Shown: positions 9,965 to 49,817 of the stretch, piece after piece
Numbering within the stretch: the first letter of the stretch is position 1
Layout: each line of letters begins with the position of its first letter
Assembly: GCF_041886205.1 (NCBI RefSeq)
Contig: NZ_CP169029.1
Direction: 5' to 3' (one strand)
From: Escherichia coli
GTDB lineage: Bacteria; Pseudomonadota; Gammaproteobacteria; Enterobacterales; Enterobacteriaceae
DNA length: 64,000 nt
Position numbers and translations under genes: made by a program
Notes under the pieces: model-generated
The model's input: only the letters and a program-made list of their open reading frames with translations
Databases searched by the model: none
What the model was told of the DNA's origin: nothing

Positions 9965-10228
9965 ATGATCGATCTGGAGAACCAGGAACGGGAGATTATC
10001 AATTTAATGTTCAGCCAGGGTATATCCTGGCTAGCCGCCGTGCGTATCAGGCATAAATTATCGCTTGCTGAAGTAAGTAAAATGTTAGGTATCTCGATTA
10101 ATTCTCTAAAACAGATCGAAAAGACGGAACGGCTTAGCTCAAACATCAAAAGCAAAATGGCAGAAATTTATGGTTGTCCATCAGAGTTGCTGATATGCCC
10201 TTCCTGGATGACGGCTGAACATAAATGA
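9965..10228 (+). CDS. short XRE-type HTH protein; probable N-terminal remnant of the HipA-like kinase gene yjjJ
   Basis: 87-aa ORF with HTH signature LSLAEVSKMLGISINSLKQIE; the lplA-deoD gap is only about 450 bp, too short for a full-length yjjJ (K-12 YjjJ is about 440 aa, from memory). Confidence 0.45.
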   Translation: MIDLENQEREIINLMFSQGISWLAAVRIRHKLSLAEVSKMLGISINSLKQIEKTERLSSNIKSKMAEIYGCPSELLICPSWMTAEHK

Positions 10229-10326
10229 ATAGATTCGTGAATAGATACTTGAATGGATTTTATTTTCTATCCATATGAAAAATAATAGTAAATCTATAAA
10301 TCAGTTGCTATTGATGAATAGATACT

Positions 10327-10356
10327 AAAAAGCCGGAGCAGTCTCCCACTCCGGCT
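10327..10356 (-). terminator. rho-independent terminator downstream of deoD (deo operon end)
   Basis: Hairpin AGCCGGAG-loop-CTCCGGCT followed by a T-run on the minus strand, immediately 3' of deoD. Confidence 0.6.
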
Positions 10357-10388
10357 TCACACGACAATCGCCTTTCAGCGAAACACAA

Positions 10389-11108
10389 TTACTCTTTATC
10401 GCCCAGCAGAACGGATTCCAGTGCGATTTTGATCATGTCGTTGAAGGTGGTCTGACGCTCAGCGGCAGTGGTCTGCTCGTGAGTGCGGATGTGGTCAGAC
10501 ACGGTACAGATGGTCAGGGCTTTCGCGCCAAATTCTGCAGCGACGCCGTAGATACCAGCCGCTTCCATTTCCACGCCGAGGATGCCGTATTTTTCCATCA
10601 CGTCGAACATTTCGCCGTCCGGAGAGTAGAACAGGTCAGCGGAGAACAGGTTACCCACGCGAGCATCAACGCCCAGTGCTTTAGCCGCGTCTACCGCGTT
10701 ACGCACCATGTCAAAGTCAGCGATAGCGGCAAAGTCATGGTCTTTAAAACGGATGCGGTTAACTTTGGAATCGGTGCAGGCACCCATACCGATAACGACG
10801 TCGCGTAGTTTTACGTGCGGCAGAACTGCGCCACAGGAACCCACGCGGATAATTTTCTTCACGCCGAAATCGGTGATCAGTTCTTTGGTGTAGATGGAGC
10901 AGGACGGGATACCCATACCGTGACCCATTACGGAAATTTTGCGGCCTTTGTAAGTACCGGTGAAGCCCAGCATACCGCGAACGTTGTTCACTTCACGGGC
11001 ATCTTCAAGGAAAGTTTCAGCAATATACTTCGCACGCAGCGGGTCGCCTGGCATCAAAACTACGTCAGCGAAATCGCCCATTTCTGCATTAATGTGTGGG
11101 GTAGCCAT
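10389..11108 (-). CDS. deoD: purine nucleoside phosphorylase DeoD
   Basis: Translation [33 protein letters not shown]... (239 aa); start trimmed to ATG at 11108. Confidence 0.93.
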
Positions 11109-11164
11109 TGTTTTATCCTTTTTGTGACATAACAAAGGCGGAGTCAACGCTCCGCCCAAATCCA

Positions 11165-12409
<1,245 letters not shown>

Positions 12410-12439
12410 TCAAATTTAAATGATCAGATCAGTATACCG

Positions 12440-13762
12440 TTATTCGCTGATACGGCGATAGACAGTTGGTGTGCTTTCCGGTGCTTTATCGGCAAGTTTA
12501 ATTGCCGCTTTCACCGCTTTCGCCGCTTCCTGCCAGCTGTTTTCGTCTTTCGCGTGGATAACCGCCAGCGGACGCTGACCGTCTACCTGGTCGCCCAAAC
12601 GCGCCATATCAGTAAAGCCGACGCTGTAATCGATGGTGTCAGATGCCTGACGACGACCGCCGCCCATTGCAACCACTGCCATCCCCAGCGCGCGGGTATC
12701 CATTTCACTGACAAAACCTTCGGTATCAGCATAGACTGCTTTCGTCAGCATCGCTGTCGGCAGATACTTCGCGTAGTTCTCAACGAAGTCGGTCGGGCCT
12801 TTTTGTGCCGCTACCATACGACCAAAGACTTCTGCCGCTTTACCGTTGTCCAGCACCGCCTGCAATTTCGCGCGCGCTTCGGCGTCATCTTTCGCCAGTT
12901 TGCCGGAGATCAGCATCTCCACACACAGCGCCATTGTGACATCAAACAGACGCGGGTTACGATATTCACCCGTCAGGAACTGCACCGCTTCACGAACTTC
13001 AACCGCGTTACCGGCACTGGAGGCCAGCACCTGATTCATATCGGTGAGCAGCGCGGTGGTGCGCACGCCAGCGCCGTTAGCCACGCCAACAATCGCTTCA
13101 GCAAGGGCTTCAGAGAGTTCGTAGGTCGGCATAAATGCACCGCTACCCACTTTCACGTCCATCACCAGCGCATCCAGACCTTCCGCCAGTTTCTTCGCCA
13201 GGATCGAGGCAGTGATCAGCGGGATGGAGTCCACGGTTGCGGTAATATCACGGGTCGCGTAGAAACGTTTATCCGCCGGAGCCAGTGAGCTGGTCTGACC
13301 GATAATCGCCACGCCGACGTCTTTAATAATTTCGCGGAAACGGTTGTCATCCGGGAAAATGTCGAAGCCAGGGATGGATTCCAGTTTGTCGAGCGTACCG
13401 CCAGTATGACCGAGGCCGCGACCGGAGATCATCGGAATATAGCCGCCGCAGGCAGCGACCATCGGCCCCAACATCAGCGAAGTGACGTCGCCGACGCCAC
13501 CAGTGGAATGTTTATCAACAATCGGGCCATTCAGATGCAGGCTTTTCCAGTCGAGAACGGTTCCTGAATCTCGCATCGCCATGGTCAGCGAGACACGCTC
13601 AGGCATTGTCATATCGTGGAAGAAAATGGTCATCGCGAGGGCGGCAATCTGCCCTTCGGAGATAGTGTTGTCGCGAATACCGTTGATAAAGAAACGAATT
13701 TCTTCATCGCTCAGCGCATGACCATCACGTTTTTTACGAATAATTTCTTGTGCGAGAAACAA
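12440..13762 (-). CDS. deoA: thymidine phosphorylase DeoA
   Basis: 440-aa [32 protein letters not shown]... matching DeoA. Confidence 0.93.
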
Positions 13763-14925: not shown

Positions 14926-16476
14926 ATGCCCACTTCTCATGAAAATGCACTGCAACAACGTTGCCAGCAAATTGTCACCAGCCCAGTGCTTAGCCCGGAG
15001 CAGAAGCGCCATTTTCTGGCTCTGGAAGCAGAAAACAATCTGCCTTATCCGCAGCTTCCTGCCGAAGCCCGCCGCGCGCTGGATGAGGGTGTAATCTGCG
15101 ATATGTTTGAAGGTCATGCGCCGTACAAACCGCGCTATGTCTTACCCGATTACGCCCGTTTTCTGGCGAACGGTTCCGAATGGCTGGAGCTGGAAGGCGC
15201 GAAAGATCTTGATGACGCACTCTCTCTGCTGACCATTCTTTACCACCACGTACCGTCGGTCACATCGATGCCGGTCTACCTGGGGCAACTGGATGCGTTG
15301 TTGCAACCGTATGTTAGAATTATAACACAAGACGAGATCGATGTTCGAATAAAACGTTTCTGGCGTTACCTCGACAGAACCCTGCCAGACGCCTTTATGC
15401 ACGCCAATATCGGCCCGTCTGATTCGCCCATTACCCGCGCGATCTTACGTGCAGACGCAGAGTTGAAGCAGGTTTCACCGAACCTGACCTTTATCTACGA
15501 TCCTGAAATCACCCCTGATGACCTGCTGCTGGAAGTGGCGAAGAACATCTGTGAATGTAGCAAACCGCACATCGCCAACGGTCCGGTGCATGATAAAATT
15601 TTCACAAAAGGGGGCTACGGGATTGTGAGCTGTTACAACTCACTGCCGCTGGCGGGTGGTGGCAGCACGCTGGTACGCCTTAACCTGAAAGCCATTGCCG
15701 AGCGCAGCGAATCGCTGGATGACTTCTTTACGCGCACTCTACCGCACTACTGCCAGCAGCAGATCGCCATCATCGATGCGCGGTGTGAATTCCTCTATCA
15801 ACAATCACACTTCTTTGAGAATAGCTTCCTGGTGAAAGAAGGGCTGATTAACCCTGAACGTTTTGTGCCAATGTTTGGCATGTATGGGCTGGCGGAAGCG
15901 GTTAACTTGCTGTGTAAGAAAGAAGGGATTGCCGCGCGCTACGGTAAAGAAGCCGCCGCAAATGAAGTGGGTTATCGCATCAGCGCGCAACTGGCGGAGT
16001 TTGTCGCCAATACCCCCGTGAAATATGGCTGGCAAAAACGCGCCATGTTACACGCACAGTCGGGGATCAGTTCCGATATCGGCACCACGCCGGGCGCGCG
16101 TTTACCCTATGGCGATGAGCCAGATCCGATCACCCATCTGCAAACTGTCGCCCCGCATCATGCTTATTATTATTCCGGCATCAGCGACATTCTGACGCTC
16201 GACGAAACCATCAAACGTAACCCGCAGGCGCTGGTACAGCTTTGCCTCGGTGCCTTTAAAGCCGGAATGCGTGAATTTACTGCCAATGTCAGCGGTAACG
16301 ATCTGGTTCGCGTTACCGGTTATATGGTGCGTTTGTCGGATTTAGAAAAATATCGCGCCGAAGGTTCACGCACCAACACCACCTGGCTGGGCGAAGAAGC
16401 CGCACGCAACACTCGTATTCTGGAACGCCAGCCGCGCGTGATAAGCCATGAACAGCAGATGCGCTTTAGTCAGTAA
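14926..16476 (+). CDS. yjjI: glycyl-radical-enzyme family protein YjjI (PFL-like, unknown substrate)
   Basis: 516-aa ORF with C-terminal glycyl-radical-type motif RVTGY; followed by its cognate activase gene. Confidence 0.85.
15312..15327. promoter_or_regulatory. DeoR operator O1 (deoP1), palindrome TGTTAGAATTATAACA
   Basis: 16-bp near-palindrome 599 bp from O2; lies inside the annotated 5' part of yjjI. Confidence 0.55.
15591..15606. promoter_or_regulatory. possible DeoR distal operator OE (TGATAAAATTTTCACA)
   Basis: Weaker palindrome 279 bp beyond O1 (878 bp from O2), matching the remembered OE spacing. Confidence 0.4.
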
Positions 16477-17311
16477 GATTATCCCCTTCTCCTGCGTTGA
16501 CGGGCCAGGCAGTCGTCTGGCTCTGTTTTTGCAGGGCTGCAATCTGCGCTGCAAAAACTGTCACAATCCGTGGACGATGGGACGTTGCAATGACTGTGGG
16601 GAGTGCGTGCCACAGTGTCCGCATCAGGCATTGCAGATTGTTGACGGCAAAGTGGTGTGGAACGCTGTGGTTTGCGAGCAGTGTGATACCTGCCTGAAGA
16701 GGTGTCCGCAACATGCCACGCCAATGGCGCAATCCATGAGCGTGGACGAAGTGCTTAGCCATGTCCGCAAAGCGGTGCTGTTTATTGAAGGGATAACGGT
16801 AAGCGGCGGCGAAGCCACGACCCAACTGCCGTTTGTAGTGGCGCTGTTTACTGCTATCAAAAACGATCCGCAACTGCGCCACCTCACCTGCCTGGTGGAT
16901 AGTAACGGCATGTTGAGCGAAACCGGCTGGGAAAAATTACTCCCGGTGTGTGACGGCGCAATGCTCGATCTCAAAGCGTGGGGGAGCGAATGTCATCAGC
17001 AATTAACCGGACGCGATAATCAGCAGATTAAGCGCAGCATCTGTTTGCTGGCAGAGCGCGGTAAGCTGGCGGAACTGCGTTTGCTGGTGATCCCTGGCCA
17101 GGTGGATTATTTGCAACACATCGAAGAACTGGCGGCGTTTATCAAGGGACTCGGCGATGTTCCGGCACGCCTGAACGCGTTTCATGCCCACGGCGTGTAT
17201 GGCGAGGCGCAAAGCTGGGCGAGCGCCACGCCGGAAGACGTTGAGCCGTTGGCTGATGCGTTAAAGGTGCGCGGGGTGAGCCGGTTGATATTTCCGGCGC
17301 TCTATTTGTGA
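16448..17311 (+). CDS. yjjW: glycyl-radical enzyme activating protein (radical SAM with ferredoxin-like Cys clusters) YjjW
   Basis: 287-aa ORF with several CxxC clusters ([32 protein letters not shown]); overlaps the yjjI 3' end by 29 nt. Confidence 0.85.
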
Positions 17312-17515
17312 CATGCCGGATACGGCCTACGGTTCGGCACAGACTTGTAGGCATGATAAGACGCGACAAGCGTCGCATCAGGCATTGTGCGCCAACTGCC
17401 GGATGCGGCGTGAACGCCTTATCCGGCCTACGGTTCGGCACAAACCTGTAGGCATGATAAGACGCGACAAGCGTCGCATCAGGCATTATGCGCCGACTGC
17501 CGGATGCTGCCTACG
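17312..17515. repeat. BIME: two near-identical tandem REP-containing units of about 90 bp
   Basis: Unit CGGCCTACGGTTCGGCACA-ACCTGTAGGCATGATAAGACGCGACAAGCGTCGCATCAGGCATT-TGCGCC-ACTGCCGGATGC occurs twice in tandem between the convergent yjjW and yjjV. Confidence 0.7.
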
Positions 17516-17524
17516 AAGGGTAAA

Positions 17525-18307
17525 CTACCCACTAACGCTAAACACCGCATACGTATTATTAAGCAACACTTCGGCAATCTCATCTTCTGGTTCCGGGCGC
17601 AACTCGCAAAGCACGTCAAACACCCGCGCAGCCTGTTCCGGGCGGTTAGGCTGCCCCTGAAAGCCGTTGAGCGGCATATCCGGCGCGTCGGTTTCCAGCA
17701 ACAACGATGCCAGCGGTAATTTTGCGATGACATCGCGGGTTTTACTGGCGCGTGGATAGGTGATAGTACCGCCTACGCCGATTTTGTAGCCCAGCTGTAA
17801 AAACCGCTCGGCCTGTTGCAGGCTGCCGGAAAAACCGTGAACCACGCCAGTGCGCGATAAATCGTGGCGTTTAAGATGCATCGCCAGTTTGTCGTGTGTG
17901 CGCCGTGAATGCAGGATCACCGGCAGATCGTAGCGTTTCGCCAGTTTCAGTTGTTCGTCGAGTAACCACTGCTGCCTCTCAAATTGCGGATCGTCGCCGA
18001 AGAGATCCAGACCGATCTCCCCCACCGCCACCACCTTCGCCGGACGCCTTTCCAGCGCCTGCTGTAGCTGATCAAGAGACACATCGCTATGTTTTTCCAA
18101 CATACCAGGATGCAAGCCCAATGCGGCATACAGCGGTTGATATTTTTCCGCTAACGCCTGCACGCGGGCAAAATTTTCCGCCTCGGTTGCCGGAACAATG
18201 ATCTTGCCTACGCCCGCTTGTGCCGCGCGTTGCAGGCTGGCCTCTTCATCGCCACTAAACGGCGGAAAATCAAAATGGCAGTGGGTGTCGATAAAACGGC
18301 AAATCAA
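17525..18307 (-). CDS. yjjV: TatD-family metal-dependent hydrolase/DNase YjjV
   Basis: 260-aa ORF beginning MICRFIDTHCHFDFPPF (TatD HxH metal motif). Confidence 0.88.
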   Translation of the reverse strand: MICRFIDTHCHFDFPPFSGDEEASLQRAAQAGVGKIIVPATEAENFARVQALAEKYQPLYAALGLHPGMLEKHSDVSLDQLQQALERRPAKVVAVGEIGLDLFGDDPQFERQQWLLDEQLKLAKRYDLPVILHSRRTHDKLAMHLKRHDLSRTGVVHGFSGSLQQAERFLQLGYKIGVGGTITYPRASKTRDVIAKLPLASLLLETDAPDMPLNGFQGQPNRPEQAARVFDVLCELRPEPEDEIAEVLLNNTYAVFSVSG

Positions 18308-40292: not shown

Positions 40293-40835
40293 ATGTTAAA
40301 CCGTGACTTCGATCATCTCTCAACGCTATTACATCTCTTTTTTGAACGTGAGGATATTTGCCAAAAGCTTAATATTATTGACCAAAACAATATCACCGGT
40401 TGGGAAGTGTGGTTCCAGGTAGAATTTGCTAATATGCTCTGCTCAACAGACCATGAATGGTGGCGTGAACAGGCACTTTCCTGTGATATGCGCAAAAAAC
40501 CTGAACGCCCGACACTACGCACAGATTTCTTACTACGTAAAAAAGGCTGGGCGCAAGATAGCTATATCGCGCTTGAAATAAAACAAAACAGTGACGCGAC
40601 CAGTTGTGTTAAAAATATGATCGCAGACTTAGAAAAAAGCGCCAAAATCAAACGTTCAGAACTCGAGTTACGCAGTTTCTGGACCCTGGGTATCACCCCT
40701 GTGATAGACAGAGAAAGGCTGGATTCTCTCATCGATTGCTATTTAGATGAGAAATTTTATCTTACTAAATCTCGTAAAAAACACGTTTTACTTAAAGAAA
40801 TAAATAATACACCATATTCCTATATTGTTATTTAA
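40293..40835 (+). CDS. hypothetical 180-aa protein with PD-(D/E)xK-like motif (D..ExK: RTDFLL ... YIALEIKQ); AT-rich orphan
   Basis: Intact ATG ORF in an AT-rich (roughly 38-40% GC) segment between divergent tsr and btsT; no recognised family from memory. Confidence 0.4.
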   Translation: MLNRDFDHLSTLLHLFFEREDICQKLNIIDQNNITGWEVWFQVEFANMLCSTDHEWWREQALSCDMRKKPERPTLRTDFLLRKKGWAQDSYIALEIKQNSDATSCVKNMIADLEKSAKIKRSELELRSFWTLGITPVIDRERLDSLIDCYLDEKFYLTKSRKKHVLLKEINNTPYSYIVI

Positions 40836-44832: not shown

Positions 44833-46683
44833 ATGGCAACAATAATCCCAACAATCAGTAGCTGCAACGATAAAATTACTGCCGGAGAGAAAAGGCTGGC
44901 AAGAATTCTGGAAAGAGGACTAGGCGAAGAGTGCTGCTGTTGGTATGACATTCCCACGGGTGATAAGCATCTTCACCCAGATTTTATGATACTTTCGCCA
45001 GAAAAAGGCATTATTTTTCTCGAGGTAAAAGATTGGTTTATTACAAAAATAAAAAAAGCCAACAAGTCTAATGTGTGGTATGAGACACAAAATGGCATTC
45101 AATCTTTAAAGAATCCGATAGAACAAGTTAGGCGATATGCTTTCGAAGCTGTAAACCAGTTAAAAAAAGACCCCCTATTGCGCCAACAGGATGATCGTTA
45201 CAATGGCAATCTTCTTTTCCCCTATGGATATGGCGTCTACTTTAGTAATATTACACGAGAAGCATTAAATAATAAATTTACTCAAGAAGAGCTGCTCGGG
45301 ATCTTCCCATCAGATCTCATCATCTGCAAAGACGAACTAAATGAATTCATGTCAAAAGAGGATGTTTCATCTAAAATACATTCGTTAATTAAATATGACT
45401 TCAAATGTCATGCTACACAAGAACAGTTGAACAGGATTAGATGGCACTTATACCCCGATGTCAGAATAGAAAGGGAAAAGAGAAGTAAAAACCGTGATGA
45501 ATTGAGTGTCGATGCACCAACCATCATTTCTATCCTGGATACTCAACAGGAACAACTTGCCAGGAGTATGAGAGATGGCCACCGAATCATTCATGGTGTT
45601 GCAGGTTCAGGGAAGACATTGATCCTCTATCATCGCTGTCAGGAATTAGCGAAAAAAAATGACAGCGAAAAGCCAATACTTGTCATTTGCTACAATATTA
45701 CTTTAGCCAAAAAACTTCGGTCGATGTTCATCAATCATCCCTTTGCAGAGAAAATAAAGGTTAAAAATTTTCATGCATGGTGTTTCCAACAAATTAAAGA
45801 AAACAAGATCACCATTCCAGAAGGGGATAATATTTTTGAAAATATGGAGCAAGCGTTGACTGATGGTTTCAACACAGGAAAAATAAAACCAGAACAATAC
45901 AGCGCTGTATTAATTGATGAAGGACATGATTTTAAGCCCGAATGGTTAAAAATCCTTGCAAAAATGACTGACTCTCAGGACGAGAATTTGCTATTCCTTT
46001 ATGATGATGCTCAGTCAATTTACCAAAAAAAGAAAGCATTAGACTTTACACTGTCCAGCGTAGATATTAAAGCGACAGGGCGCACAACTATTCTTAATAT
46101 AAATTATAGAAACACACAGCAAATCCTACACTTTGCCAGTTGCATTGCATTTAATTATCTTAATAGCCATATCGATAGTTCTTTAACCTATCATAAACCT
46201 GCTGCGGGAGGAATGAATGGCGATTATCCCAACCTTGAACATTTCGACACACAGGACGAAGAAATAGCAAGAGCAGTCAAATGGATTACAGAGCAAAATG
46301 AACAAGGGATTCCGTGGTCTGAAATTGCTATACTAAGTCCATCAACTCATACCCTTTCTAACTCTCTAAGTTCTGTACTTGAATCGAAAAACATCCCCTT
46401 TAATCTTATTGTAAGCTCTGCAGATAAAAAATCCTGGACGCCAGAACAAGAGCGTGTTTCTGTGATGCCATTACCCAGCAGCAAAGGGCTTGAGTTTCAC
46501 TCAGTTGTCATTATTGACGCAGCGAGAACACGGGATAATAGCGATGATTTGAGTGAGGATATAAAGAGACTCTATGTAGGTTTTACCCGAGCACGTTGCA
46601 ATCTCTTGGTAACCTTGCACGGTGAAGGTGCGTTAAATGAGCATCTACTAAAAACCTATGAGCAAAGCCCACAATATATGTAA
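44833..46683 (+). CDS. NERD-like nuclease domain fused to SF1 (UvrD-like) helicase; candidate Nhi-like defence protein
   Basis: 616 aa. N-terminal NERD-like block (GEKRLARILERGLG ... HPDFMILSPEKGIIFLEVKDW); helicase Walker A HGVAGSGKT, Walker B LIDEGHDF, motif VI VGFTRAR. AT-rich (about 35% GC). Occupies the slot where K-12 has mrr-hsdRMS. Confidence 0.75.
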   Translation: MATIIPTISSCNDKITAGEKRLARILERGLGEECCCWYDIPTGDKHLHPDFMILSPEKGIIFLEVKDWFITKIKKANKSNVWYETQNGIQSLKNPIEQVRRYAFEAVNQLKKDPLLRQQDDRYNGNLLFPYGYGVYFSNITREALNNKFTQEELLGIFPSDLIICKDELNEFMSKEDVSSKIHSLIKYDFKCHATQEQLNRIRWHLYPDVRIEREKRSKNRDELSVDAPTIISILDTQQEQLARSMRDGHRIIHGVAGSGKTLILYHRCQELAKKNDSEKPILVICYNITLAKKLRSMFINHPFAEKIKVKNFHAWCFQQIKENKITIPEGDNIFENMEQALTDGFNTGKIKPEQYSAVLIDEGHDFKPEWLKILAKMTDSQDENLLFLYDDAQSIYQKKKALDFTLSSVDIKATGRTTILNINYRNTQQILHFASCIAFNYLNSHIDSSLTYHKPAAGGMNGDYPNLEHFDTQDEEIARAVKWITEQNEQGIPWSEIAILSPSTHTLSNSLSSVLESKNIPFNLIVSSADKKSWTPEQERVSVMPLPSSKGLEFHSVVIIDAARTRDNSDDLSEDIKRLYVGFTRARCNLLVTLHGEGALNEHLLKTYEQSPQYM

Positions 46684-46827: not shown

Positions 46828-47121
46828 TTGCTGTTAAATTCCAGCGCGTTAGCCGCTGGAATTAACAAGATCAGACTTCCGGCAACGAAGAGCCAGTTAT
46901 TACAAAAATTACTGGCAAAAGAGATAAAAAGCATTGTTGACAACACATCGAAATATCCTGACTGGAGTAAACACGATGATATTAAAGCGAAACTGAAAGT
47001 TGAACTTATTCTGCTTCTACACAAGCATAAGTTCCCGTCAGTAGCGAATGATGATGTTTATATGGGTGTGCTGGCACAGGCAGAGAGTTTTAAAGAACAT
47101 CATATGAGTCCTATAAATTAA
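46828..47121 (+). pseudogene. 97-aa remnant ORF; C-terminal part resembles the helical C-terminal region of type I restriction R subunits (from memory)
   Basis: In-frame stops immediately upstream; segment IKAKLKVELILLLHKHKFPSVANDDVYMGVLAQAESFKEH; AT-rich. Family assignment unverified. Confidence 0.3.
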
Positions 47122-47260: not shown

Positions 47261-47299
47261 ATTTAGCGCGGTGCGGATGTGCGCCAACACACCCGCACC

Positions 47300-47376
47300 A
47301 CTCATCACAATCACTATTTTCAAGGAATAGCAGTTATGACTGACACGCATTTTATTGCACAACCGTTCGAAGCAGA
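47300..47376 (-). ncRNA. symR: expected location of the antisense sRNA SymR (antitoxin) overlapping the symE 5' end
   Basis: Placed from established knowledge that SymR is encoded antisense to the symE translation start; exact ends not verifiable from sequence alone. Confidence 0.3.
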
Positions 47377-47677
47377 AGTCTCCCCGGCAAATAACCGTCA
47401 ATTAACCGTGAGTTATGCGAGCCGCTACCCGGATTACAGCCGTATTCCCGCCATCACCCTGAAAGGTCAGTGGCTGGAAGCCGCCGGTTTTGCCACCGGC
47501 ACGGCGGTAGATGTCAAAGTAATGGAAGGCTGTATTGTCCTCACCGCCCAACAACCCGCCGCCGAAGAGAGCGAACTGATGCAGTCGCTGCGCCAGGTGT
47601 GCAAACTGTCGGCGCGTAAACAAAAGCAGGTGCAGGATTTTATTGGGGTGATTGCCGGTAAACAGAAAGTCGCCTGA
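47336..47677 (+). CDS. symE: SOS-induced toxin SymE (AbrB-fold endoribonuclease-like)
   Basis: Translation [72 protein letters not shown]... (113 aa) from ATG at 47336. Confidence 0.9.
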
Positions 47678-47685
47678 TAAATTGA

Positions 47686-47709
47686 CCCGGTAGCGCCAGT
47701 GCTACCGGG
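47686..47709. terminator. bidirectional hairpin terminator between convergent symE and the DUF262 gene
   Basis: Stem CCCGGTAGC / GCTACCGGG with 6-nt loop, 9 nt after the symE stop and 15 nt after the minus-strand gene stop. Confidence 0.55.
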
Positions 47710-47723
47710 TATTATTCGCCACG

Positions 47724-49817
47724 TTATACCAACGCGCTCTCCATCTGTTTTTCAAATGCCTGACGAATTAATCCCATAATGTAAGGAAGTTGTGCGAGGT
47801 CGCTGAAACCAATTTCCACATCACCATTACCCCAGCGCCCAATATTTGTCACATCTTTGGCAATACCTTTCGGATCGACCAGTTCATGAAACTGCATATT
47901 AAGCGACAATCGCAGTCGGCTTTTTTGCGGCACAACATCAACAAAATTCGTTTCAGCTTTAAACGCAATATACAGCTTTAAAACTTCCTGCGTGATCCCT
48001 GCGTCCAGGCGCATAACTTCATCGCGAAGATGATCGAATAACACCCGGCTATGCGAACCATCAGCAAGAAAAGGATAATCACTCAGGCTGTAACTGGTTT
48101 TGTTTTCTGGCTGCCCCCGATAAACAGCTAAAACCTCTTCAGAAAGAGAAGGCGCTTGCCAGACCTGAACCGCGAGATCGGCCAGACGATCGGCTCGGGC
48201 GTGAATGGCGGCTTCATCCCATTTTTCGCACTGTCCAAGACCGATATTCAAATAAAGCGGGCTATGTTTAAAGCCATCTTCAATATCGCGTTTTTCCGCG
48301 AAAGGTCTGTCACTGTAGCGGGAGTTATAGCGCGTTAAAGTGAGATTCCCCAACGTATGTAACAGTTCTTTATGCACACGCTGCCAGTCGCTTCCCAGCT
48401 CTTCACGCCATTTAGCCGACAGATTTTCGTTCTGCGGCATAATGTGCTCAATCGTAAACTCTTCCACGCGCTCTCTGCGTTTATCGTTTTCCAGTCGTCG
48501 TAACCAGTAGCTGCGGCTGCGGAAGTTATAGAGATCGCGCACTTTTAATTCCCGTTTAAATTCATCATCGTTGGGGAAACGACGATATGAAGGCAGGTTC
48601 ATAAAATGTACCTGAATACTTTCCAGATATTTTTCTTTATTAATGACCTTATAAAAAGTGGCAAACGTCTTGTTAAGAGAATTCGTCGGAATCGCACATA
48701 CTGCACGGCGGAAAACATAAGATTCAATTAAACGAATTATGCTCAGGAAATCTTCGTGAGACAAATCGTCATTTTTATAGTCATGATAAAGCGCCAGTAA
48801 GAAAGGATACGCCACATCAACCTTTAACTCGCGCAAATCCTGAAAAGCCGTAGCAAGCGATTTGTCACTTTCTTTTCCCAATGCCATTGCACAGTAATAC
48901 TCCGCGTAGATATGAATATCTTCAACCAGCCGATCTACGCCTTTTTCAGCAACACTCTGGCTGCGGGCATGGAGTTTAAATGCCTCATAGACTTCATCTG
49001 TCCGAGGGATCTCCCCCGTTTTTACCGTCAGATAATGACGCATAAAACTGTCAAAATATTCGCTGTAACCTTGCTGACCAAAGGCGACTTCCATTGGACG
49101 CCAGTGATCTTCATACAACCGGGTTTGATGCTCTGGTTCGAGACCCATCAGAATAAAATTGCGCACCAGATCGGCCTGACTTAACGCCTTACCGGTGGAG
49201 TTCATACTTTCAAAAATCAGTTGCGGATTATCCTGACCACGATTAAGCGCCACATCGACAATTAATAACTTTGCTAACCCTCGACATAAGGGAATCAAGT
49301 CATCCCCGAGTTTGGCAATTTGCTCATCAAAGAAAGTAAAGTTTTCCATTATTCGATGGGAATAGTTTTCTGGCATTGGTCTTTGTTTTATTAACGCCAG
49401 CAAACTGTCTTTATCAGTCTCGGTCAGCAGTAATTTAAAACCTTTCTCGCCGGACTCATAAGGATTGAGCAAATAATAATTACGCAATTTCATTGCCGAA
49501 AAGCCATCAAAAACTTCGTCTTCGCCAAGATGGCGCGATAAAGCCTCAATCAGCAACATTGCGGTCGTCAGCCGCTGCTGACCATCAATGACCAGCAACG
49601 GAGAAATACCAGAAACCTGATACAACCCCTGCTCAATATAAACAACCGAACCGATAAAATGCGCTGATATATCGTCACGCTTTCCGGCACGAATGATGTC
49701 GTCCCAAAGTTGCCGACATTGTTGCCCGGTCCATGAATAGGTGCGTTGATAAATGGGAATAACAAACTGCTGCGAACGTTTTAAAAAATCGAGTAGGCGG
49801 GCTTCTGTAGCTTTCAT
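47724..49817 (-). CDS. DUF262/DUF1524 (GmrSD/BrxU-like) putative type IV restriction endonuclease with an extra C-terminal module
   Basis: 697 aa. N-terminal ParB/DUF262 signatures IPIYQRTYSW and DGQQRLTT; His-Me finger-like segment EHIMPQ...LGNLTLT; about 120-aa C-terminal extension (YIAFKAETNFVDVVPQKSRLRLSLN...). Sits where K-12 has mcrBC. Confidence 0.75.
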   Translation of the reverse strand: MKATEARLLDFLKRSQQFVIPIYQRTYSWTGQQCRQLWDDIIRAGKRDDISAHFIGSVVYIEQGLYQVSGISPLLVIDGQQRLTTAMLLIEALSRHLGEDEVFDGFSAMKLRNYYLLNPYESGEKGFKLLLTETDKDSLLALIKQRPMPENYSHRIMENFTFFDEQIAKLGDDLIPLCRGLAKLLIVDVALNRGQDNPQLIFESMNSTGKALSQADLVRNFILMGLEPEHQTRLYEDHWRPMEVAFGQQGYSEYFDSFMRHYLTVKTGEIPRTDEVYEAFKLHARSQSVAEKGVDRLVEDIHIYAEYYCAMALGKESDKSLATAFQDLRELKVDVAYPFLLALYHDYKNDDLSHEDFLSIIRLIESYVFRRAVCAIPTNSLNKTFATFYKVINKEKYLESIQVHFMNLPSYRRFPNDDEFKRELKVRDLYNFRSRSYWLRRLENDKRRERVEEFTIEHIMPQNENLSAKWREELGSDWQRVHKELLHTLGNLTLTRYNSRYSDRPFAEKRDIEDGFKHSPLYLNIGLGQCEKWDEAAIHARADRLADLAVQVWQAPSLSEEVLAVYRGQPENKTSYSLSDYPFLADGSHSRVLFDHLRDEVMRLDAGITQEVLKLYIAFKAETNFVDVVPQKSRLRLSLNMQFHELVDPKGIAKDVTNIGRWGNGDVEIGFSDLAQLPYIMGLIRQAFEKQMESALV

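Follow-up and report, generated by a model that had tools for sequence, protein, structure and literature searches.

The 697-codon gene on the minus strand at 47724..49817 of the analysed stretch of Escherichia coli DNA (64 kb in length, hereafter the window) probably encodes a single-chain GmrSD-family type IV, that is modification-dependent, restriction endonuclease and belongs to the cassettes of the E. coli Immigration Control Region (ICR). This reading is based on its domains and motifs, its matches to defence families, the ICR context, purifying selection on the gene and a published orthologue. By analogy with Eco94GmrSD and BrxU, the N-terminal DUF262 domain would bind and hydrolyse NTP and thereby gate a conformational or oligomeric cycle, after which the C-terminal His-Me finger would cut incoming phage DNA carrying modified bases, whether of the hmC, glucosyl-hmC or another type. 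More tentatively, a third domain, DUF5655, may tune which DNA is accepted or may regulate the enzyme.

The gene was described by He et al. 2015 as a GmrSD homologue of the ICR, and it corresponds to the CLS_001 cluster of Silas et al. 2025. The gene itself, its location in the ICR and the lack of McrBC there have already been published, and its C-terminal module is already a Pfam family. Our analysis adds the conservation of this tail, the swapping of modules at the tail, a cross-phylum identity of 60-70% and the frequent placement of the gene inside type I restriction-modification (R-M) operons.

Domain architecture and catalytic residues

The open reading frame begins with ATG and contains no internal stop, as seen from the ORF list and the translation. 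Its coordinates agree exactly with the 697-aa protein given in the preliminary description, which had left the strand unstated. The following features were assigned:

47724..49817, minus strand: whole gene, 697-aa single-chain GmrSD-family protein (ORF list, translation, three Pfam domains)
49152..49793, minus strand: GmrSD_N / DUF262 (ParB-like NTPase), aa 9-222 (Pfam PF03235, 4.1e-34)
49572..49586, minus strand: DGQQR nucleotide-hydrolysis motif, aa 78-82 (invariant in 46 homologues)
48576..49151, minus strand: all-helical middle region joining the two catalytic domains, aa 223-414 (AlphaFold model, pLDDT mostly >85)
48177..48575, minus strand: GmrSD_C / DUF1524 His-Me-finger (HNH-like) nuclease, aa 415-547 (Pfam PF07510, 1.6e-26)
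48432..48449, minus strand: EHIMPQ, the (D/E)HxxP catalytic motif, aa 457-462 (motif match)
48345-48347, minus strand: N491, which together with N498 provides the partner Asn residues of EHIMPQ (alignment)
48048..48176, minus strand: variable linker, aa 548-590 (least conserved segment; residues 569-574 with pLDDT <50)
47748..48047, minus strand: DUF5655 (PF18899) C-terminal domain, aa 591-690 (Pfam 3.6e-13, model positions 13-108/109)
47724-47726, minus strand: stop codon (translation)

All four motifs on which the earlier assignment had been built were recovered in the translation: IPIYQRTYSW at aa 20-29, which includes the QR.YSW motif of the DUF262 domain at aa 24-29, DGQQRLTT at aa 78-85, EHIMPQ at aa 457-462 and LGNLTLT at aa 489-495. 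The proposed fusion of DUF262 and DUF1524 was borne out by the profile search, which placed the protein in the GmrSD family through PF03235 (4.1e-34) and PF07510 (1.6e-26). Furthermore, no degeneration of the catalytic motifs was found. Across 46 aligned homologues of full length (27-82% identity), D78-G79-Q80-Q81-R82, P461 and N491 are invariant, and E457, H458 and N498 are kept in at least 90% of the sequences. Mutagenesis has shown the equivalents of these residues to be indispensable in characterized members of the family: D507, H508 and N522 of Eco94GmrSD, corresponding to the nuclease motif, are essential for cleavage (PMC4437046). In BrxU, both NTP hydrolysis and phage resistance depend on Q101 and R102 of the DGQQR equivalent, and D474 and H475 are further equivalent residues found to be required (PMC8565348). 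The full-length AlphaFold model reached a pLDDT of 87.5 and a pTM of 0.71.

Comparison with models of defence systems revealed a match of the PADLOC Orf5 model PDLC02693 to the first 553 residues (1.9e-223), and the 697-aa protein also matched the PADLOC models HEC-06, mREase_IV and SspE. A name search did not trace the system from which the label 'Orf5' originates, and an NCBIfam search of the 697-aa protein matched no family model. Consensus scans for promoters and terminators flanking the gene gave scores no better than those of shuffled sequence.

Location in the ICR and earlier descriptions of the gene

The gene is placed between yjiA and yjiS, the anchor genes of the ICR, in the order yjiA, helicase-like gene, hsdR remnant, symE, the gene under study, yjiS and yjiR. 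The same order is present in strain 6EVA, whose copy is 100% identical to that of the window. The directly adjoining symE (NCBIfam 4.6e-68) is convergent with the gene, and the antisense RNA of symE, symR (Rfam, 88 bits), likewise lies directly next to the gene, at 47265-47341. The type I system of the window is reduced to a C-terminal remnant of hsdR at 46828-47121. In K-12 the corresponding interval reads yjiS, yjiT, yjiV (pseudogene), mcrC, mcrB and symE. The gene had been said to occupy the chromosomal position of mcrBC, and this holds: it sits between symE and yjiS, where K-12 has yjiT-yjiV-mcrCB. Since the symE-yjiS interval of K-12 holds mcrC and mcrB, the gene belongs to the McrBC side of the ICR. 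It is a reasonable inference from this placement that the gene may be a functional replacement of mcrBC with a different modification specificity.

A diverged GmrSD homologue has been reported by He et al. 2015 in the ICR of APEC O1, UTI89, CFT073, 536 and other strains, with symE, hsdSMR, mrr and yjiA as neighbours and with McrBC absent (PMC4437046, section 17, Fig. 8). The APEC O1 representative, APECO1_2080, has UTI89_C5048 and c5421 as orthologues and was described as about 24% identical to Eco94GmrSD. A different preference for sugar modifications, or a different immunity to inhibitors, was suggested for it by the authors (PMC4437046). APECO1_2080 is the same gene as ours, with 96.9% DNA and 98% protein identity to the window copy and the same place beside symE. 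The 733 aa quoted for it in 2015 reflect a longer start call than the one giving 697 aa. The neighbourhood in APEC O1 contains hsdRMS and mrr, whereas the window has neither adjacent to the gene. A 2025 EcoSal Plus review also notes that a GmrSD homologue replaces McrBC in some ICRs and that GmrSD is present in 12% of ICRs.

According to Silas et al. 2025 (PMC12373910), CLS_001 is the largest enterobacterial GmrSD cluster, with 116 members, and one representative from each of 15 groups, CLS_001 among them, was synthesised and tested on T2, T4 and T6, five new ones being active. CLS_001 includes WP_001531297, a 76%-identical E. coli allele found in strain CH4794, and WP_001513533, an accession that falls between those of symE (WP_001513534) and Rpn (WP_001513532), which flank the gene in MS8345. 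From this position in the numbering, WP_001513533 is probably the former full-length annotation of the MS8345 copy. Among complete E. coli genomes (5,426 searched by megablast), the gene was matched in 1,480, with at least 80% of its length covered in 1,351 of these.

The C-terminal module DUF5655

The last part of the protein, about 120 aa, had been described as a domain that could not be placed. It is indeed a separate domain, but one that already carries a name, DUF5655 (PF18899, 3.6e-13). The PADLOC candidate system protein PDC-S18 also matches the last 100 residues separately (1.4e-24). A full-text search of the literature for DUF5655 brought up a single passing mention and no study of its function. 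In the predicted structure of aa 555-697 (pLDDT 89), a helix and a four-stranded sheet are followed by the conserved GRWGNGD loop, a fifth strand and, at the C-terminus, a long helix. The model superposes on solved members of the YdhG/YjbR-like fold at 9-15% identity, the best matches being YdhG/frataxin-like proteins and YjbR, among which there is no proven DNA-reader function. The YdhG-like (DUF1801) and YjbR-MmcQ (DUF419) proteins are small stand-alone alpha+beta proteins with no established link to restriction. Further fold neighbours are type III secretion chaperones, immunity proteins and the C-terminal 'double-wing' domain of T4 MotA, a DNA-binding domain of a transcription factor that belongs to the same fold class. 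No reader of the SRA, EVE or PUA type was among the structural matches listed for the DUF5655 model.

The conservation of DUF5655 equals that of the catalytic domains. Identity to close and distant homologues, respectively, amounts to 77% and 46% for DUF262, 72% and 44% for the middle region, 73% and 48% for DUF1524 and 76% and 49% for DUF5655, with 47% and 30% for the linker (aa 548-590). Moreover, among relatives that align over the first ~560 residues with 37-51% identity, other modules take the position of the domain. A homologue from Flavobacterium gelidilacus carries DUF4268 there (aa 696-830, 6e-35), two related proteins carry RAMA, and others have segments without an assigned family. 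DUF4268 has been recorded before as an extra domain of GmrSD proteins (Machnicka et al. 2015), and RAMA, which occurs in fusions with ParB and nuclease domains, has been proposed to read m6A or other modified bases (PMC4738411). DUF5655 may be an exchangeable accessory module that tunes DNA acceptance or regulates the enzyme: DUF4268, RAMA or unassigned sequence takes its place in relatives, its conservation is that of the catalytic domains, and T4 MotA has a DNA-binding domain of the same fold class. The position-for-position replacement of modules is the best argument for such an accessory role in specificity or regulation.

A profile search with the DUF5655 domain returned 2,333 representative proteins, and the strongest matches were almost all parts of GmrSD-type proteins. 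A stand-alone DUF5655 family was considered after a search with the C-terminal 143 aa had given mostly proteins of 140-250 aa. A Pfam scan of a sample dismissed it, as most of these proteins carry pieces of GmrSD_C or GmrSD_N and are fragments or split calls of the 700-aa gene. A few of the short DUF5655 matches are chimeras in which the gene call has taken in parts of type I R-M systems.

It is possible, though not probable, that DUF5655 does not read DNA at all and is a regulatory or protein-interaction module, which could be autoinhibitory, mediate oligomerisation, or act as sensor of, or decoy for, inhibitors that phages inject, like the Ip proteins. Its charge is on the acidic and not on the basic side (net charge -2 in the window protein, family mean -3.7), and this mildly acidic character is also the reason why a generic DNA-binding role is not favoured. 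The frataxin/YdhG proteins, secretion chaperones and immunity proteins among its fold neighbours point the same way, as do the highly specific injected inhibitors that target GmrSD enzymes (PMC12373910) and the dimer-to-monomer cycle through which BrxU is controlled (PMC8565348). On the other hand, a predicted modified-base reader, RAMA, takes the same position in relatives, the fold class also holds YjbR and the DNA-binding domain of MotA, and a domain caught up in an arms race with inhibitors would not usually be so highly conserved across phyla. We consider it unlikely that DUF5655 is a new specificity or sensor module that gives the clade a non-classical substrate preference or couples the nuclease to the state of type I methylation. 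The classical preference of GmrSD enzymes is for glc-hmC and hmC, and the YdhG/YjbR-like fold is unrelated to the SRA, EVE, PUA and winged-helix readers.

Relation to solved nucleases and linkage to type I R-M systems

Comparison with GmrSD, BrxU and SspE, which the preliminary description had recommended, showed that all share the DUF262-DUF1524 core, and the closest solved structures are all defence nucleases of this type. The first was DndI (9jfl, Foldseek E 3e-15, TM 0.51-0.58), followed by SspE and then by BrxU (7p9k, 1.7e-4). A sequence search of the solved structures detected only DndI (phmmer 1.3e-12) and SspE, with BrxU 7P9K not found at E<=1. DndI (9JFL) and SspE (6JIV/7DRR) are thus the best matches in both structure and sequence, yet their identity is only 16-18% and the likeness is that of the shared core. 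DndI lacks DUF5655 and ends where the DUF1524 domain of the window protein ends, which makes DUF5655 an addition to that core. Eco94GmrSD and the GmrSD of E. coli CT596 share with the window protein the single chain of DUF262 and DUF1524, the DGQQR motif and the (D/E)H-N-N motif. They differ from it in being 629 aa long, without a third domain and encoded by prophages, whereas the window gene lies in the ICR; both act on DNA with glc-hmC and hmC. BrxU has the same two-domain core and motifs, but comprises 580 aa, lacks DUF5655 and is embedded in BREX. No brx or pgl genes were present in the annotated neighbourhood of the window gene.

Phosphorothioate in self DNA is the mark sensed by DndI and SspE, which restrict unmodified invaders (PMC11662687). 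As they act on unmodified DNA, modification dependence cannot be assumed from the fold alone. The window protein could accordingly be imagined as a nuclease of their kind, attacking unmodified foreign DNA while self DNA is spared through a host modification, plausibly the m6A of a type I system, in the manner of an RloF-like, R-linked ORF. The linkage data bear on this alternative, along with the structural match to DndI.

Three-domain full-length homologues with at least 70% identity were found in Kiritimatiella, Psychrobacter, Halomonas, Oceanimonas and many metagenomes. Homologues in Chloroflexi, Planctomycetes, Actinobacteria and an archaeal metagenome-assembled genome (Methanococcoides, 65%) are 62-72% identical over ~692 residues. 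A scan of one genome per species gave more than 550 relatives. The clade keeps 60-70% identity across phyla, whereas hardly anything is shared among other GmrSD groups.

Across phyla the gene has a neighbourhood of defence islands and type I R-M systems. The Kiritimatiella copy lies within the operon, hsdM-hsdS-(gene)-hsdR, where stop and start codons overlap, and the Psychrobacter copy comes after hsdM-hsdS-hsdR-ygjP. A census of 82 loci from other species (ORF calling and phmmer), to be read as a lower bound as many contigs are short, showed hsdM or hsdR in 36 of them. A type I gene lay no more than 1.5 kb away in 33 of the 82, nearly always on the same strand, and embedded arrangements, either hsdM-hsdS-(gene)-hsdR or hsdM-(gene)-hsdS-hsdR, were often seen. 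That GmrSD homologues are linked to type I R-M has been published, as has the name RloF (PMC4619093). In other E. coli strains the gene adjoins hsdRMS-symE, but in the window only the hsdR remnant is left and the gene is nevertheless intact. The E. coli hsd neighbours also differ, being of the EcoKI type in APEC O1, of the EcoAI type in LH09-a and O157, or absent, as in the window, which argues against an obligate coupling to one methyltransferase. None of the modification genes sspABCD and dndBCDE occurs within the 64-kb window, and the identity to DndI is 18%. Hence, self-mark sensing appears quite improbable for the E. coli gene despite the operon-like linkage elsewhere, and restriction dependent on modification of the incoming DNA is retained as the probable function.

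Integrity, selection and RefSeq annotation

The reading frame is uninterrupted over 697 codons in the window and in 6EVA, LH09-a, TKEC21-59, APEC O1 and MS8345. Between the window gene and that of LH09-a there are nine synonymous codon differences and one non-synonymous, and the copies in 6EVA, TKEC21-59, APEC O1 and MS8345 share 98-100% protein identity with the window. The gene is under purifying selection, as this synonymous excess and the protein identity in four further strains indicate. At NCBI/GenBank the exact 697-aa sequence is held as one protein, 'DUF262 domain-containing protein [Escherichia coli]', from 159 contigs.

By contrast, the RefSeq annotation (PGAP) splits the locus in every record inspected into a 387-aa DUF1524 CDS, which starts at M311, and a fragment labelled 'DUF262 pseudogene, missing C-terminus'. 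True lesions exist in O157:H7 strains, where a 1-nt deletion near nt 801 yields ORFs of 293 and 387 aa, and in strain H34, where the gene is interrupted by an IS1 insertion. The split in RefSeq would be explained by protein models of the O157 type having been propagated onto intact genes. That the gene is decaying or inactive, as the RefSeq annotation and these two lesions might imply, is therefore very improbable against six full-length copies, mainly synonymous substitutions, the integrity of every catalytic motif and the single GenBank product.

Significance

With the gene and its locus already described, the remaining value lies in the function of the conserved DUF5655 tail, the conservation of the clade across phyla and the problem of RefSeq annotation. 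As RefSeq splits intact copies, defence finders that operate on proteins may under-count the gene. Few type IV restriction candidates of E. coli are commoner, with about one quarter of complete genomes carrying the gene in full length, and being so common it may affect which phages of the T-even-like or otherwise modified kind, those used in therapy among them, can infect natural isolates.

Conservation of the three-domain nuclease

The three-domain protein of E. coli (DUF262, DUF1524 and DUF5655) shares 62-72% identity over ~692 residues with its counterparts in Chloroflexi, Planctomycetes, Actinobacteria and an archaeal metagenome-assembled genome (loci L012-L050 from other genomes, e.g., L013 from Anaerolineales, L014 from Planctomycetales, L015 from Pseudonocardia and L017 from a Methanococcoides MAG). 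Contrary to this family, in which such identity is retained across phyla, other GmrSD clusters reportedly have almost nothing in common beyond the DGQQR motif. The high conservation could possibly be attributed to recent and wide horizontal spread together with type I restriction-modification (R-M) cassettes; alternatively, an unusually constrained target is a possible reason.

In many species the gene resides inside a type I R-M operon, arranged either as hsdM-hsdS-[gene]-hsdR or as hsdM-[gene]-hsdS-hsdR (L009, 4257-13961; L013, L016, L018-L021, L027 and L034). Because stop and start codons of the GmrSD and hsd genes overlap in these operon-embedded loci, the arrangement suggests that the nuclease would be co-translated with the R-M subunits.

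In relatives that share the DUF262-DUF1524 core, the position of DUF5655 is taken by other C-terminal modules (L090 from Flavobacterium gelidilacus, 10001-12505; L080, L081, L075 and L088). DUF4268 takes this place in the L090 protein (aa 696-830) and RAMA in two members of alignment A5, and the C-terminal segments of the L080 and L075 relatives gave no Pfam match.

Genomic neighbourhood in the window

[quoted passage not shown]

44833-46683, + strand, gene of a NERD and UvrD-like helicase protein (616 aa), between yjiA and the hsdR remnant
46828-47121, + strand, C-terminal remnant of HsdR, the type I restriction subunit (PADLOC REase_I, 1.7e-23, last ~70 profile residues)
47265-47677, convergent with the GmrSD gene, symE toxin gene with antisense symR (symE NCBIfam, 4.6e-68)
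47265-47341, - strand, symR antisense RNA (Rfam RF01809, 88 bits)
47685-47710, inverted repeat, ACCCGGTAGC-GCCAGT-GCTACCGGGT

Other E. coli strains have hsdRMS genes flanking the GmrSD gene; in the window these are deleted. The helicase gene, matched by PADLOC model C3a187 (2.7e-140) and more weakly by GajB, Nhi and AbiO, is probably a further defence cassette of the ICR. It is intact in the window; in the copy of strain 6EVA, codon Q196 is changed to a stop, and the annotation reads '3'-5' exonuclease, internal stop'. The 46-nt gap between the symE and GmrSD stop codons holds the inverted repeat, a perfect one of 10 bp, which may represent a terminator common to both genes.

Elsewhere in the window, tsr and btsT flank a 180-aa ORF (40293-40835, + strand) that is labelled 'hypothetical protein' in 6EVA and had no match in NCBIfam or PADLOC.

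Allelic variation and annotation in E. coli

In O157:H7 strains (e.g., FRIK944, L006 3001-5093) a 1-nt deletion near nt 801 yields two ORFs of 293 aa (DUF262) and 387 aa (DUF1524-DUF5655), a form that recalls the historical two-gene 'GmrS + GmrD' description. An IS1-family insertion interrupts the gene in E. coli PS2Canimalfeces12 (NZ_CP180600.1, 1845576-1848446). A second allele, WP_001531297, with 76% protein identity, is found in E. coli CH4794 (L007, 7996-10095), where the ICR is arranged differently (yjiA - BrnA antitoxin - Fic - [GmrSD gene]) and the gene is divergent from an hsdM-hsdS-hsdR operon.

Unlike this second allele, a single intact gene in RefSeq, the intact 697-codon ORF of the window type appears as two RefSeq (PGAP) features in all five intact genomes inspected. 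One, named 'GmrSD/DUF1524 domain-containing protein', begins at M311 and has 387 aa; the other is labelled 'DUF262 pseudogene, missing C-terminus'. Copies annotated in this manner are:

47724-49817, - strand, window
16001-18094, L001
6001-8094, L002 and L003
9001-11094, L005
3001-5094, L008

The same division apparently extends to most of 40 rows among the matches listed. Since the ORF is divided in RefSeq, defence-system surveys built on RefSeq proteins may overlook or under-count the GmrSD gene.
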